A stretch of 64,000 nt of DNA, taken from NCBI GenBank assembly GCA_965208325.1, contig OZ242326.1, positions 3,008,001 through 3,072,000 on the forward strand, read 5' to 3'. Below the pieces are notes generated by a model. That model had not been told where the DNA came from. It made no database searches and was given only the letters and a program-made list of their open reading frames with translations. Below, piece by piece: positions 13,426 through 50,561 of this stretch. This DNA is from Candidatus Poribacteria bacterium. GTDB lineage: Bacteria > Poribacteria > WGA-4E > PCPOR2b. The number at the start of each line of letters is the position of its first letter. The first letter of the stretch is position 1. The position numbers were made by a program, and so were the translations under genes.

Positions 13426-15645
13426 CTACCTGACAACCACCATCCGTCTTAGAGCGGTATACTCACCCGTGTCGAGCTGAAAATAATAAGTACCGCTTGT
13501 CACAGGTTCTCCGGTCTGATTGAAGCCATCCCAATACGCGGCACTAGCTTTGTCTCGATAGACTCCCGATACTTGATGCCCAATGTCGAGGGTGCGGACG
13601 ATATGACCGCTCTGGTCGTAGATGCTTAAAGTGACGTAAGTATCGTTCGCTAACTGGTATGGTATCCAGGTCTCTGGGTTAAACGGATTCGGAAAATTCT
13701 GCAGCAGCGCCGTGCGTTTGATGTCTCCCAGCGTTGTTAAGCGTCTTTCTAACGTTTTCACGGCTAGTTTGGTAGGACAAGCGAAATCCCACAGCAACAC
13801 GGTGCCGTCCCGACTTCCGCTTGCGATGGTGCTGCAATCGGTACTGAACGCAACACTCCGGACCTCATCCGTGTGTCCGTTAAGCGTACGCAAGAGTTCT
13901 CCAGTGTGCGCATCCCACAACCGTACGGTAGTGTCGTGCCCCCCACTTGCGATGGTGCTGCCGTCAGGACTGAAGGCAACGCTATAGACCCCGAATGCAT
14001 GCCCGTTGAGCGTTCGCCGGCGTTTACCGGTATCGACGTTCCACAATCGGACGGTGCTGTCCCAACTGCCGCTGGCGAGTGTATGTCCATCGGGACTGAA
14101 CGCAACGCTATTGACCTGATTTTTGTGTCCCTCGAGCGTAAGCAGGTGTTTACCACCCGGCTTCCACAGCCAGATGGTTTTGTCCCAACTACCGCTTGCC
14201 AGTGTACGTCCATCAGGACTGAATGCAACGCTATAGACCCAATGCCTATGTCCGATAAGCGTGCGCAGGTGTTTTCCCCACCGGGTGTTCCACAGGTGAA
14301 TTGTATCGTCTGCACTCCCACTAGCAATTGTGTCCCCATCGGGACTGTATGCGACACTCCAGACCCATCCTCCATGTTCAACAAGCGTTCGCAAGTGTTT
14401 TCCGGTATTGGCGTCCCACAAACGGATGGTATTGTCCCCACTCCCGCTAGCAATTGTGTCCCCATCGGGACTGAACGTAACACTCCACACCGAACCCGTA
14501 TGTCCTGTGAGTGTCTGTTGGCGTCTTCCAGTATTGGCGTCCCACAGATGGATTGTATAGTCCAAACTCCCACTTGCGAGTGTTAGTCCATCGGGGCTGA
14601 ACCCAACGCTATAGACCTCGCGCTTATAGCCTGTGAGCGTGCGCAGGTGTTTTCCGGTATTGGCATCCCACAGACGGATGGTTTCATCCCAACTCCCACT
14701 TGCGAGTGTTAGTCCATCGGGACTGAACGCAATGCTATTGACCCCAGACGAATGTCCATTGAGCGTTTGCAGGTGCTCTACGGTATTGGCATCCCACAGA
14801 CGGATGGTATCGTCCCCGCTCCCACTTGCAAGCGTACGTCCATTGGGACTGAATGCAACGCTTCGGACTGTACCCGTGTGCCCCGTGCGCCGACGCATGG
14901 GACTTCCCGTGTTAGGGTCCCACAAGCGCATGGTTTTATCCCAACTCCCGCTTGCGAGTATTTGTCCATCGGGACTGAATGCAACGCTCCAGACTGCATT
15001 GTTATGCCCTTTTAGGGTTCGCTTTTGTTTTCCCGTATTGGCATCCCACAGACGGATGGTATCGTCCTCACTCCCGCTTGCGAGTGTTTGTCCATCGGGA
15101 CTGAATGCAACGCAATTGACCCCAGATCTATGCCCCTTGAACGTACGTACCTGTTCTCCCGTATCGGCGTCCCACAACCGGATGGTAGGGTCATCGCCCC
15201 CACTAACGATTGTGCGTCCGTCCGGACTGAACACAACGCTATAGACCCAACCCGTATGCCTGCTAAGCGTTCGCAAGTGTTCGCCCGATTCGGCATCCCA
15301 CAGACGGACGGTACGGTCCCAACTCCCGCTAGCGATTGTGCGTCCGTCCGGACTGAACGCAACGCTCCAGACCCTTCCCGTATGTCCGGTGAGCAGTGCG
15401 GCCTCTTGATGGGTCGCTGTATCGTAAAGCCAGATACCGATACCGCTAGCCACCGCAAGTCGCGTGCCGTCGGGCGAATACTGTATTTCGTTTAACACAC
15501 CTTTACCCAAGCGCGCTTTAGCGCCTTCGGGCAACCCCCATTGCGGAGAATCTTGGGCGTCACTGTGCGGTACACACATGGCAGAAACAAAAAAGAAAAA
15601 TAGGCTAAGCTTGAAAATCATTGCTTTCTTAATGGGAATAATCAT
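13426..15645 (-). CDS. Secreted WD40-repeat protein with C-terminal FlgD-Ig/T9SS-CTD-like domain (paralogue 1)
   Basis: Signal peptide, QWGLPEGAKARLGKG, ~13-14 GH..WD repeats, TTLGDIKRTALLQNFPNPFNPETWIPY. Start uncertain (15645 or 15621). Confidence 0.9.
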   Translation of the reverse strand: MIIPIKKAMIFKLSLFFFFVSAMCVPHSDAQDSPQWGLPEGAKARLGKGVLNEIQYSPDGTRLAVASGIGIWLYDTATHQEAALLTGHTGRVWSVAFSPDGRTIASGSWDRTVRLWDAESGEHLRTLSRHTGWVYSVVFSPDGRTIVSGGDDPTIRLWDADTGEQVRTFKGHRSGVNCVAFSPDGQTLASGSEDDTIRLWDANTGKQKRTLKGHNNAVWSVAFSPDGQILASGSWDKTMRLWDPNTGSPMRRRTGHTGTVRSVAFSPNGRTLASGSGDDTIRLWDANTVEHLQTLNGHSSGVNSIAFSPDGLTLASGSWDETIRLWDANTGKHLRTLTGYKREVYSVGFSPDGLTLASGSLDYTIHLWDANTGRRQQTLTGHTGSVWSVTFSPDGDTIASGSGDNTIRLWDANTGKHLRTLVEHGGWVWSVAYSPDGDTIASGSADDTIHLWNTRWGKHLRTLIGHRHWVYSVAFSPDGRTLASGSWDKTIWLWKPGGKHLLTLEGHKNQVNSVAFSPDGHTLASGSWDSTVRLWNVDTGKRRRTLNGHAFGVYSVAFSPDGSTIASGGHDTTVRLWDAHTGELLRTLNGHTDEVRSVAFSTDCSTIASGSRDGTVLLWDFACPTKLAVKTLERRLTTLGDIKRTALLQNFPNPFNPETWIPYQLANDTYVTLSIYDQSGHIVRTLDIGHQVSGVYRDKASAAYWDGFNQTGEPVTSGTYYFQLDTGEYTALRRMVVVR

Positions 15646-15859
15646 CCGAATCTGAGTTTGGGGATTTATGCCGCTTGAACAAAATGAGGGTTGGGCGTAA
15701 ATTTTCACACCCAACCCGAAATGAAGGTTTACCCTTGTTTAATCGCCTGATGACAATTCCTAAACAACAACCCACCAAATAATCTAACATGACGAGCTGA
15801 TGTAATCGGAAAAACCGTCACGTCATCAGCGCTGATTGTCTTCTAGATTATTACTATGG

Positions 15860-16213
15860 CTAAAAATTTGCCGAATCACGTTTAACATGGAATCGGTCCT
15901 CGAAATCGGTGCCGTGGATAGTTGCAACCGAAAAACCGTCACCTTCCTCGCAATCGGCTTGAGTTGCGGAAACGGAATCAGAGATAAGTTCCCCATCGGC
16001 GAAGGTGCCGCTGTCGTTGTTCTCATCATCACCAACACTAGCGAACACGTCGTAACCGCCATCAATAAGACCGTAACTATTCGCTGATGCCGTTGCACTG
16101 CAACTTGACAATTTCGCAGTACAGTAAGCATTATATGCATATACGCTGACACAAACAACAAGAATTACCAACACAAAGACACTACTCAAAGTAACCAACG
16201 TTTTTAACTTCAT
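15860..16213 (-). CDS. Small secreted protein, YNAY family copy A (117 aa)
   Basis: AAGGAG RBS. Leader MKLKTLVTLSSVFVLVILVVCVSVYA then YNAY. Paralogues at 35400 and 49029. Confidence 0.85.
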   Translation of the reverse strand: MKLKTLVTLSSVFVLVILVVCVSVYAYNAYCTAKLSSCSATASANSYGLIDGGYDVFASVGDDENNDSGTFADGELISDSVSATQADCEEGDGFSVATIHGTDFEDRFHVKRDSANF

Positions 16214-16226
16214 GATATTCTCCTTT

Positions 16227-49385: not shown

Positions 49386-49397
49386 GATATTCTCCTT

Positions 49398-50195
49398 TTA
49401 ATAGTCGCCAAGAAGGGTAGTCAGGTCATACCCTGCATTATCGTACTCAACTAATTTTATACCGGGAAACTTTGTCTTATAAGCCCCCGACAGTATTTCT
49501 TCCTCTGTAAAAAGGTCCTCATCGCTATTCAATAGAGGATCAACTGTGCTGGAAGCCCCAAGCCTAGCGCTGATATAAGGCACCTCAATAGACTCTCCAT
49601 CAGGACCTTCACGGGTATAACTATCCCACTTAACGTATATCACGTCCGGATAGATTGGGTAGACCCTACCAGTGTCTTCATCTAAGGTACCATTCACGAA
49701 ATCGTGATTACCCCGATTCCACAATTCTATCAACGCACGGTATAACGTGACGTGGGCGGAAAAATCACGTTCATGAAAATAATCTTCCAACCACACCGGA
49801 GTCATGGGAAACCCATCAGGTACTTCAGGATATTTACTAGATTCCGCTTCCTCCTGTTCCAGCGCCTCAGCAAGAGCAGTTAACTCCTCATCGCTAAGCG
49901 CCGCCAACTGAGCCTCCAAATCTTCATCAATTTTAGCAGAGTCAGTTTCAGTTTCAGAATCATCGGCATCACTGAGTGATTGTTCAAGTTCTGATACCCA
50001 ATCTGTCCCTGACACCGATGGCGTATCTGGAGAAACAGAGGTGGCATAGGAACGTTCCGCCGTCAATAGGTGTTCCGGTGTAGGTTCAACATCGGGACCA
50101 AAGAGCCAACGGCTACCGAAGTAACTACCCGCAACCAGTAGCACTGAAAGCAAGACTGCCCCACCTAGAAACAGCTTCTGTCTAATCGTAAACAT
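49398..50195 (-). CDS. Membrane-anchored partner protein copy C (intact)
   Basis: MFTIRQK plus TM helix, acidic linker, YPEVPDGFP, LIELWNRG, VYPIYPDVIYV, FPGIKLV. Confidence 0.88.
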   Translation of the reverse strand: MFTIRQKLFLGGAVLLSVLLVAGSYFGSRWLFGPDVEPTPEHLLTAERSYATSVSPDTPSVSGTDWVSELEQSLSDADDSETETDSAKIDEDLEAQLAALSDEELTALAEALEQEEAESSKYPEVPDGFPMTPVWLEDYFHERDFSAHVTLYRALIELWNRGNHDFVNGTLDEDTGRVYPIYPDVIYVKWDSYTREGPDGESIEVPYISARLGASSTVDPLLNSDEDLFTEEEILSGAYKTKFPGIKLVEYDNAGYDLTTLLGDY

Positions 50196-50250
50196 GGTTA
50201 TCACCCCCCTCACGCTGTCAATTCTTGGTTGAGAGAAATTTATGTGATCA

Positions 50251-50561
50251 CTGCGGACCGTTCCGCAGTTCTAAGTGTTACTTGATGGCTATCTTATAAG
50301 CAAATTGTGTGCCAAGACGAATAATTCCCTACAATTTGGCAACAGATTAGCCTCGGAAACCCTGATGTGGCAAGGGATGGGGACAGTTAAATTGTTTTTC
50401 AAATTGGAGTGGCAGCGTCCTGACGAGATTTGGAAAGGGGTGCGACAAAAGTTGACACAATTCAAGGAATTTTGGGAATACCAGTGCGCTAAGCCTTGCC
50501 ACACAAGGGTTTTGGGGGATGTGCGACAAAAGTTGACAAAAGCAAAAAATGTCGCACCCCT
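50251..50561 (-). promoter_or_regulatory. Sigma-54 promoter/enhancer module copy 4
   Basis: TGGCACACAATTTGC at 50314-50300. TGCGACAAAAGTTGACA at 50441 and 50522. TGTCGCA at 50550. Confidence 0.85.

Follow-up and report, generated by a model that had tools for sequence, protein, structure and literature searches.

A shared sigma-54 regulatory module ahead of four gene units suggests a genus-specific regulon for envelope and surface proteins in sponge-symbiont Poribacteria

In this study, we believe that four minus-strand gene units of a sponge-symbiont Poribacteria genome belong to a two-component/sigma-54 regulon that is specific to one genus and serves inducible proteins of the envelope and surface, and not to a secretion apparatus. 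Judged from the sequence, this reading has a probability of about 0.68. One sigma-54 switch heads genes for exported proteins, and we therefore favored an inducible protein set of the envelope and surface over a new export machine. The shared promoter and activator sites adjoin a kinase/activator pair, and the intact products are predicted to be exported or membrane-anchored, so the "co-induced modular surface or secreted" set of the first-pass annotation appears to be the natural reading. The window, that is, the whole stretch of DNA analyzed, comprises 64,000 nt of contig OZ242326.1, and all coordinates are positions in it. The features are as follows.

13426..15645, minus strand: WD40-1, signal peptide, 14 WD40 repeats, C-terminal FlgD_ig / T9SS type A sorting domain
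15860..16213, minus strand: small A, 117 aa, signal peptide and predicted Ig-like beta-sandwich
16227..17010, minus strand: partner A, split: the N-terminal fragment with the TM is at 16813-17010, the C-terminal domain ORF at 16227-16931
~17048..17370, minus strand: regulatory module 1, putative activator sites, sigma-54 promoter TGGCAT-N5-TTGC starting at 17111, 5'-UTR hairpin
17435..18868, minus strand: NtrC-type enhancer-binding protein, REC, sigma-54 AAA+ domain and Fis-type HTH
18878..20509, minus strand: histidine kinase, two PAS domains and HisKA/HATPase_c, soluble, without a hydrophobic segment
23359..24741, minus strand: VWA-1, N-terminal hydrophobic anchor and two VWA domains (the second with DxSxS)
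24872..27076, minus strand: WD40-2, architecture as WD40-1
~27279..27585, minus strand: regulatory module 2, putative activator sites, sigma-54 promoter at 27330, 5'-UTR hairpin
28345..29730, minus strand: VWA-2, start MIVLKR; a longer ORF, from TTG, runs into the end of WD40-3
29829..32033, minus strand: WD40-3, WD40 protein of unit 3
32100..34310, minus strand: WD40-4, start MKKAMF; the ORF extends to 34520
34675..35319, minus strand: partner B, 214 aa, short form with a signal peptide; lipoprotein-type counterpart in a sister genome
35400..35771, minus strand: small B, 123 aa
~35859..36168, minus strand: regulatory module 3, putative activator sites, sigma-54 promoter at 35910, 5'-UTR hairpin
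49029..49385, minus strand: small C, 118 aa, the protein used for the structure model
49398..50195, minus strand: partner C, 265 aa, conserved TM helix, acidic helical linker and ~140-aa alpha/beta domain
~50251..50573, minus strand: regulatory module 4, putative activator sites, sigma-54 promoter at 50314, 5'-UTR hairpin

The gene content of the units was as the first-pass annotation had listed it: partner A, small A and WD40-1 in unit 1; WD40-2 and VWA-1 in unit 2; small B, partner B, WD40-4, WD40-3 and VWA-2 in unit 3; and partner C and small C in unit 4, each in this order. An export signal or N-terminal TM had been claimed for every product. Hydropathy gave one N-terminal hydrophobic segment in 12 of the 13, and the exception was the C-terminal ORF of partner A (maximum KD 0.63). 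Compared with partner C, this gene has lost 8 bp, and its N-terminus and the C-terminal ORF consequently lie in different frames. A terminator-like hairpin with a 13-bp stem lies between small A and WD40-1 (15717-15688, minus strand); therefore, unit 1 may not be one uniform transcript. Units 3 and 4 are separated by 11 kb of unrelated housekeeping genes on the plus strand (36960-48186). The region is an island with IS remnants at 21668-23080 and MITE-like repeats.

A single regulatory module had been proposed ahead of all four units, and the four-way alignment bore this out over approximately 310 conserved columns. When the unit-3 module was searched against the genome, the three other copies were recovered with E values of 4.8e-83, 4.2e-42, and 9.4e-27 and identities of 89% (over 232 nt), 79%, and 74%, respectively. 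This similarity is real and far above chance. All four modules carry the -24/-12 element TGGCAY-N5-TTGC, which is of the canonical sigma-54 type (TGGCAC-N5-TTGCW), and an 18-nt hairpin, CTGCrGAACGGTCyGCAG, 34-46 nt downstream of it. Two versions of the hairpin exist, related by a compensatory change from a G-C to an A-T pair, and 14 of the 33 distinct sigma-54-like promoter segments listed for the window and 23 loci fit its pattern. Paired putative activator-site repeats, TGCGACA / TGTCAAC / TGTCGCA, lie at about -240 to -130 in each module. Among the 57 sigma-54-like sites of the 4.7-Mb genome, the 7-mers TGCGACA/TGTCGCA were found upstream of these four promoters only, apart from one further site with a single 7-mer at -51. 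The definition of the activator sites is provisional because the 7-mers were not found upstream of the module promoters in two sister genomes.

The soluble PAS kinase and NtrC-type activator, which had been placed directly upstream of unit 1, were confirmed there, ahead of module 1. Pfam assigned REC, Sigma54_activat (PF00158, 8.3e-57), and HTH_8 domains to the activator. The loop motif of sigma-54 activators is named GAFTGA, and the translated loop here reads GAYTGA. The genome also encodes rpoN (TIGR02395, 307 bits, or 365 with the neighboring segment, against a cut-off of 277). We speculated that the double-PAS kinase senses a cytoplasmic cue and phosphorylates the adjacent activator, and that the activator would then bind the repeated sites approximately 130-240 bp upstream and open the four sigma-54 promoters together. 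The conserved stem-loop at the 5' end of the transcript probably stabilizes or tunes the mRNA. Three paralogous activators, 57-69% identical, are encoded elsewhere in the genome, and one of them could serve the module sites instead.

The products would leave the cytoplasm by general routes, as their sorting signals suggest. Each WD40 protein has an N-terminal hydrophobic segment (KD15 2.07-2.51) followed by A-Q-D or A-E-N, as judged by hydropathy. The tails of WD40-1 and WD40-2 scored 27.0 and 32.0 bits with TIGR04183 (cut-off 23), respectively, and 39-42 bits with FlgD_ig (cut-off 27); PF18962 stayed under its cut-off on the WD40 tails. The tails of WD40-3 and WD40-4 are 88-92% identical to that of WD40-2. 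The four proteins are thus predicted to be Sec and type-IX-like cargo, which would pass through Sec and then a type-IX-like C-terminal-domain route. The genome encodes a SprA-like ORF of 2196 aa (65 bits, below the cut-off of 200), a PorV-like gene (104 bits, below 250), and two PorU-like ORFs (282 and 257 bits, below 420); GldM had no match in the genome, nor did the control genomes give one. The route for the C-terminal-domain cargo is therefore putative, as Kamke et al. (2014) had already pointed out. Across 45 WD40 repeats, the entropy peaked at 8 of 42 positions on a nearly invariant scaffold, and the variation clustered at a few sites ahead of strand A and near the S-x-D-x-T turn. The proteins would be 14-blade structures with variable positions on the top face.

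The VWA proteins matched PF00092 with 39.2 and 37.8 bits against a cut-off of 23.8. The second VWA domain has the MIDAS motif D-S-S-F-S, and the first is degenerate (E-R-G-E-N). VWA domains had been noted to serve often as adhesins; a surface adhesin is not what the signals of these proteins predict, because the anchor is N-terminal and an outer-membrane sorting signal is lacking. By these signals, the two membrane-anchored double-VWA proteins would remain at the inner membrane or in the periplasm. A WD40 gene adjoins the VWA gene in 3 of 30 loci examined, all three in this genus, and the VWA orthologues outside the genus stand alone among housekeeping genes. The link between VWA and WD40 genes may be recent and loose. 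For the regulon as a whole, the domain types would suggest a role in adhesion or recognition.

The small and partner proteins belong to two unnamed families without a Pfam match, and all the loci retrieved for them were from Poribacteria. For the small protein, a signal peptide followed by an Ig-like beta-sandwich of approximately 90 residues (pLDDT 92) is predicted, and it had no sequence match to any solved chain. The partner is predicted to be a single-pass membrane protein whose alpha/beta domain is modeled confidently and has no matching fold. The window would thus hold three copies of a two-gene cassette, in which an Ig-like exported protein with a highly variable mature part is joined by a membrane protein with an unclassified periplasmic domain, and the two probably form a periplasmic or membrane-bound complex. 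The first-pass annotation had tied its system to families that occur with each other and with the promoter. This tie failed for the VWA family (36 of 41 related genomes) and the partner family (32 of 41), with the module confined to one genus, but it held for the small:partner pair, the only pairing of unit components that travels together. A partner match lay within approximately 250 nt of 14 of the 21 small-family matches in the 41 genomes (coordinates read by eye). Of the 69 partner ORFs in the sampled loci, 20 had a small-family neighbor.

It could be asked whether this pair is a polymorphic effector-immunity or bacteriocin-like system, with the WD40 and VWA genes as merely co-regulated neighbors. 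The exported, variable small protein would then act on competitors or host cells, and the membrane or lipoprotein partner would protect the producer. We consider this unlikely. Small proteins share 20-24 of their first 30 residues and only 27-32% identity in the mature part, but the shared N-terminal stretch is no more than a signal peptide of the Sec type. One genome contains three divergent small/partner subtypes, with gene order changing with the subtype, and partner paralogues stand in tandem in runs of as many as five, some of them short and lipoprotein-type, as orphan immunity genes would. However, 36 of the 69 partner ORFs had no small exported neighbor in a crude screen. The beta-sandwich bacteriocin lactococcin 972 was a weak fold neighbor of the small protein, although its Z of 4.3 (66 aligned, rmsd 2.8) is inside the background range stated by the fold-comparison tool. 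No toxin, peptidase, or pore-forming family was detected in the units by Pfam, NCBIfam, or a sequence search of solved structures, and a dedicated secretion or processing gene is absent from them. Among the nearly invariant residues of the partner domain, none is a candidate for catalysis, and they are uninformative on immunity.

The module repeats might also merely reflect recent segmental duplication in an island rich in repeats, with no functional regulon behind them, which we regard as quite improbable. The IS remnants and MITE-like repeats, the paralogous genes within the units, and the homology of modules 1 and 4, which runs on into the partner genes (81% over 300 nt), fit such an origin. 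However, modules 2 and 3 are 89% identical and diverge directly after the hairpin, and the first genes behind them, WD40-2 and small B, are unrelated. The non-coding module (74-89% pairwise nucleotide identity) is also far better kept than the adjoining mature small proteins (27-32% amino acid identity), and its conserved blocks are the promoter, the site repeats, and the hairpin. Among 26 genomes of the family, the full-length module was found in only four, all of one genus, and all four genomes of this genus keep it, with 7-10 matches each. In the sister genomes, it again stands ahead of small, partner, WD40, and WD40-VWA genes, often with kinase and activator orthologues alongside.

The least probable reading is the undescribed export system of the first-pass annotation, an assembly with the small protein as fiber or coat subunit, the partner as chaperone or anchor, and the WD40 and VWA proteins as tip adhesins: Pfam and NCBIfam found no transport, usher, secretin, ATPase, or channel family in the 13 unit products, Pfam matched no usher, secretin, ATPase, or channel among the 19 ORFs scanned in the region, no unit has a sortase gene, the WD40-type tail marks a general route common to at least 50 other proteins of the genome, the small C model is a complete seven-strand sandwich, and the parts are not co-inherited (small family in 10 of 41 genomes, with small followed by WD40 and no partner gene found in one sister genome). 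What fits it is that the intact products are all extracytoplasmic by hydropathy, that the partner TM helix is strongly conserved, and that the small protein is a single Ig-like domain, as is often seen in pilins and coat subunits. In the fold comparison of the small protein, two curli accessory proteins come first, CsgH with Z 6.5 over 88 aligned residues (rmsd 4.7) and CsgC with Z 6.1 over 86 (rmsd 3.6; Foldseek E 8e-3 to 1.3e-2 for CsgC/CsgH), yet these Z values lie below the specificity range of the tool.

Under the preferred reading, a genus-specific regulon, we speculated that on a signal the envelope and surface would be remodeled with variable binding modules directed at the sponge matrix, other cells, or phages. 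A bolder version, which we offer tentatively and hold to be doubtful, is that a PAS-sensed cue and one sigma-54 activator control an inducible, diversifying recognition repertoire of the envelope, composed of hypervariable WD40 propellers and the Ig-like/membrane-partner module. If this is true, the small/partner pair would be a self/non-self or host-recognition (or effector/immunity) system, and the whole would be a bacterial extracellular counterpart to the hypervariable WD40 receptors of fungal allorecognition.

Several known systems resemble parts of this set. The CsgC and CsgH proteins are small, periplasmic, Ig-like curli accessory proteins, and the small family is like them in its length (~95-100 residues), signal peptide, and predicted single seven-strand sandwich. 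In contrast, it has no sequence similarity to them, its units contain no curli-type genes by Pfam, and it is hypervariable, which CsgC and CsgH are not known to be. In the fungal HET-E/NWD proteins and their bacterial counterparts, which are cytoplasmic NTPase-linked receptors, the WD40 repeats within a protein are highly alike except at hypervariable surface positions. Similarly, the WD40 proteins here have near-identical 42-residue repeats that vary at few positions; unlike HET-E/NWD, they are predicted by their signals to be exported, carry no NTPase domain, and have a T9SS-type sorting domain at the C-terminus.

WD40 repeats with a TIGR04183 tail were already reported for the same phylum in 2014, and that paper also reports a failure to find structural Por secretion genes (Kamke et al. 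2014, PLoS One 9:e87353, PMC3909097). What differs here is a complete 4.7-Mb genome, a defined sigma-54 promoter accompanied by its own kinase/activator pair, hypervariable positions inside the WD40 repeats, and SprA-, PorV-, and PorU-like genes that are detectable below the family cut-offs.

As in NtrB-NtrC-type sigma-54 regulons, a kinase gene stands beside a REC-AAA+-HTH activator gene, rpoN is present, and several promoters with a -24/-12 element share repeated sites 130-240 bp upstream. Unlike NtrC-family regulons, whose genes are metabolic, flagellar, or pilus genes, the set described here comprises genes for exported repeat proteins and unnamed envelope proteins, has a soluble double-PAS kinase and a 5' stem-loop at every module, and belongs to one genus only.

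The genome is complete, a single contig of 4.71 Mb, of which the window takes bases 3,008,001-3,072,000, and its minus strand carries the genes named by the first-pass annotation, at 13.4-50.6 kb of the window. They form four units, each headed by a copy of one control element (modules 1 to 4), and a regulator pair, an NtrC-type activator and a double-PAS histidine kinase, lies directly upstream of module 1. The unit products are two unnamed families, called small (A to C) and partner (A to C), four WD40 proteins (WD40-1 to WD40-4) and two VWA proteins (VWA-1 and VWA-2). The units share one sigma-54 control element, the two-component pair looks cognate, and the exported products take general routes.

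Layout of the region in map order
Unit 1, minus strand: WD40-1 < small A < partner A < module 1
Regulator pair, minus strand: activator < kinase
Between kinase and VWA-1: a stretch of repeats and IS remnants
Unit 2, minus strand: VWA-1 < WD40-2 < module 2
Unit 3, minus strand: VWA-2 < WD40-3 < WD40-4 < partner B < small B < module 3
Between units 3 and 4, plus strand: eleven kb of housekeeping genes (PhoX, dihydrolipoyl dehydrogenase, fused E1, glycosyltransferase, radical-SAM/SPASM protein, TIM-barrel protein)
Unit 4, minus strand: small C < partner C < module 4

Unit ends and the stretch before the kinase gene carry an interspersed repeat of about 280 bp (13189-13301; 20582-21578, with about 283 bp in each of three tandem copies; 27812-28280). 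It looks MITE-like, with the terminal inverted repeats TTTGTAGGTTGGGTAGAGCGGG ... CCCGCTCTACCCAACCTACAAAG and, inside it, the palindrome CTCCCCCTTGGTAAGGGGGAG. Tn5-type IS remnants between the kinase gene and VWA-1 (21668-23080, minus strand) comprise two split ORFs, one with Tnp_DNA_bind (22646-23080) and one with DDE and Tn5 dimerisation domains (21668-22438). A terminator-like hairpin with a 13-bp stem and a T-rich tail (15688-15717, minus strand) lies between small A and the WD40-1 start and could attenuate read-through into WD40-1. Nine paralogous ORFs of about 280-375 residues stand in tandem at 53156-62747 (minus strand) with a spacing of about 1.05-1.12 kb; the one that was scanned is a PD40 (TolB-like) beta-propeller.

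The shared promoter module and gene units described in the first-pass annotation are confirmed. The four modules can be aligned across about 310 columns, and in a genome search they retrieved each other at E of about 1e-27 to 5e-83. Three blocks are conserved. Block 1 has a distal part, TGCGACA followed by TGTCAAC and TGTCGCA one helical turn apart (about -240 to -210), and a proximal part, a second TGTCAAC/TGTCGCA pair at about -143 to -130. Block 2 is the promoter, TGGCAY-N5-TTGC, and block 3 is an 18-nt hairpin, CTGCrGAACGGTCyGCAG, 34-46 nt downstream of the promoter, whose fifth stem pair is G-C in units 1 and 4 and A-T in units 2 and 3. Genome-wide, 57 sites fit the promoter pattern; the 7-mers and the hairpin were found at these four only, and a lone 7-mer stands at -51 of one further site. 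Modules 2 and 3, which share 89% identity, diverge directly after the hairpin and precede unrelated genes, and the non-coding module is much better conserved than the adjoining mature small proteins (27-32% identical). On these two grounds, the module has been kept as a control element and is no mere passenger of gene duplication. When 26 genomes of the family were searched, the full module was found in the four genomes of the genus only, in 7-10 places each, and two others gave short weak matches. In the sister genomes, the module heads small/partner genes, WD40 genes and WD40 > VWA pairs, as well as further exported or lipoprotein-like proteins of 260-300 residues, and it often adjoins kinase and activator orthologues.

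The genome contains rpoN. The activator adjoining module 1 combines a REC domain with a sigma-54 AAA+ domain, whose loop reads GAYTGA, and a Fis-type HTH; in the kinase, two PAS domains were found but no hydrophobic segment. We infer that the adjoining activator acts on the module sites, that the four units would be co-induced, and that the envelope or surface is where their products probably act. Among sequencing runs, four from a single study were listed as containing window 27000-36400, as DNA contigs, and no RNA run was. The 3' part of the module, which is the promoter region, resembles promoters served by paralogous activators, where a 678-residue glutaredoxin-domain protein is found downstream. 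These activator genes, 57-69% identical, lie in two other loci of this genome (G000, contig C1), L009 (G000:C1:2658000-2672000) and L010 (G000:C1:3190000-3202000); one is accompanied by a paralogous PAS kinase, and each is followed by such a promoter. Further downstream in L009/L010 are the glutaredoxin-domain protein, DUF1573 proteins, a PD40 protein and a C39-peptidase/DUF1573 fusion, and the two loci look like sister regulons with different targets.

The units had at first been interpreted as an export system. The part of this interpretation that stands is the shared sigma-54 control of exported products; the export system itself was given up, because no machinery is encoded in the units and the components occur independently outside one genus. 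As judged from its sequence, the locus is a putative NtrC/sigma-54 regulon of a sponge symbiont that would control unnamed envelope proteins together with type-IX-like cargo, and it points to no new secretion mechanism.

WD40-1 to WD40-4 are about 735 residues long, with a signal peptide, 42-residue repeats and a C-terminal FlgD-Ig / T9SS type A sorting domain. TIGR04183 scored above its cut-off on WD40-1 and WD40-2, and the tails of WD40-3 and WD40-4 are 88-92% identical to theirs. Counted by the anchor motif, there are 45 repeats, from 6 to 14 in each protein and 14 in both WD40-1 and WD40-4, built on a near-invariant scaffold (TLxGHxxxVxSVAFSPDGxTIASGSxDxTIRLWDADTGxHLR); the variation is centred on eight positions, which we take to be the lining of the top, ligand-binding face of the propeller. 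The long antisense or out-of-frame ORFs within the WD40 genes (13764-15495, 25210-26842, 30232-31891 and 32386-34110, both strands) are not separate genes, and they are a by-product of the 126-nt repeat structure. The four WD40 proteins are no special class within the genome, which has at least 14 close paralogues, several behind other sigma-54-like promoters without the 7-mers, and at least 50 proteins with a sorting tail of this type. The PhoX alkaline phosphatase (36960-38690, plus strand) shares this FlgD_ig / T9SS-type C-terminal tail. Locus L008 (G000:C1:1666000-1682000; 5692-10518, minus strand) contains the genome's third WD40 > VWA pair; upstream of the pair are a 285-residue Laminin_G_3 protein and another sigma-54-like promoter, one without the activator sites of the module.

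About 19-23 kb past the window end there is a SprA-like ORF of 2196 residues (G000:C1:3091331-3095149, minus strand), which gave four sub-threshold segments against the T9SS translocon SprA (best 65 bits, cut-off 200). This ORF may encode a divergent translocon that serves the genome's numerous proteins with this kind of C-terminal domain. PorV-like genes and two PorU-like genes were also found in the genome, all under the family cut-offs. A GldM search of the genome gave no match, and the control genomes gave none either, so this result is uninformative.

In VWA-1 and VWA-2, a single hydrophobic segment at the N-terminus is followed by two VWA domains, the first degenerate and the second with an intact DxSxS; no C-terminal sorting domain was found in them. 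The VWA family is present in 36 of 41 related genomes. A WD40 sorting-domain gene stood upstream of VWA in 3 of the 30 loci examined, all three in this genus, and no kinase adjoined the VWA gene in those outside it. In the seven loci outside the genus with ORFs listed, the VWA gene stood alone amid unrelated, housekeeping-looking genes. This locus comparison rules out VWA as a conserved companion of WD40 genes beyond this genus.

The partner proteins consist of a conserved TM helix (GGAxLxxVLxVxGSYFGSxW), an acidic helical linker and an alpha/beta domain of about 140 residues, which was modelled at pLDDT above 90 for most of its length. Foldseek found no match to this fold in the PDB at E <= 0.001 (best 0.12), the ESM Atlas gave no usable match to the domain, and the partner profile matched solved-structure sequences through TM/linker composition only (best E 0.0032). 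The matches listed from a wide VIA-align search were taken up by the N-terminal helix (residues 1-45), so that this search bears on the helix only. Pfam applied to 68 members gave one stray RWD match and no family that covers partner; the near-invariant positions of the 68-member alignment include Pro, Trp, Gly, Tyr, Leu and Val, with no obvious catalytic set. The family falls into 290 representative clusters at E <= 0.001 (89 at <= 1e-10), typically of about 250 residues, and all 25 loci retrieved outside the window are from Poribacteria. It was present in 32 of 41 related genomes (22/24, 5/6, 4/5 and 0/5 across the four families sampled), with up to 13 copies per genome, some as tandem arrays. 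In the window, partner A is split through an 8-bp deletion, and partner B is a signal-peptide-bearing short form; in a sister genome, its orthologue carries the lipoprotein-type L-A-C where this genome has L-A-F.

In other Poribacteria, an ECF-type sigma gene, assigned by inspection of the N-terminal sequence only, adjoins the partner gene, upstream in loci L016 (genome G001, 7-nt gap) and L019 (G019) and downstream in L022 (G021). This indicates that the lineages differ in the regulators to which they have coupled the cassette. The preceding ECF sigma gene also suggested partner as an anti-sigma factor, an idea that was put aside, as only about 8-20 residues come before the TM helix.

The small proteins have 117-123 residues, of which the first 30 (MKxKxLVMLSSxLVLTTLIVCVSVYAYNAY) are 67-80% identical and the remainder 27-32%. 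The model, built with a 39-sequence alignment, has a pLDDT of 92 and shows an N-terminal helix and a seven-strand beta-sandwich. It had no clear match among solved structures; the best neighbours were CsgH (Z 6.5, rmsd 4.7, 88 aligned) and CsgC (Z 6.1, rmsd 3.6, 86 aligned), with generic Ig-like domains ranking next, and the family profile retrieved nothing from solved-structure sequences. In a collection of 5.8 billion proteins the family has 40 clusters, all unnamed, and it occurs in 10 of 41 related genomes.

For fourteen of 21 small-family matches, a listed partner match is no more than about 250 nt away (coordinates read by eye), and one more is separated from a partner array by about 750 nt. 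In one sister genome, two small genes were found, in the order small > WD40, and no partner match. Among 69 partner ORFs, from sampled loci of which some duplicate one another, 20 have a small-family neighbour; a crude screen gave 33 with some same-strand neighbour of 80-200 residues bearing a hydrophobic N-terminus and 36 without. By default, we regard small and partner as a putative periplasmic or membrane complex. A putative effector/immunity-like pair is ranked as the main rival because of the variability and the partner arrays.

Among candidate mediators of the interaction between sponge and symbiont, those cited most often are eukaryote-like repeat proteins, WD40 proteins being one example. 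The locus is a testable regulatory handle on eukaryote-like proteins, with a kinase/activator pair, a defined promoter and site, and few target genes. A literature search found no paper joining Poribacteria with sigma-54 among the matches listed. The regulation and export of WD40 proteins are not treated in the consulted passages of the 2014 single-cell study, where Por structural genes are noted as not found in Poribacteria and WD40 proteins with this sorting domain are already reported in them (Kamke et al. 2014, PMC3909097). The new element here is the small/partner cassette, and its two unnamed families, both with confident structure models, are now defined and ready for naming and study.
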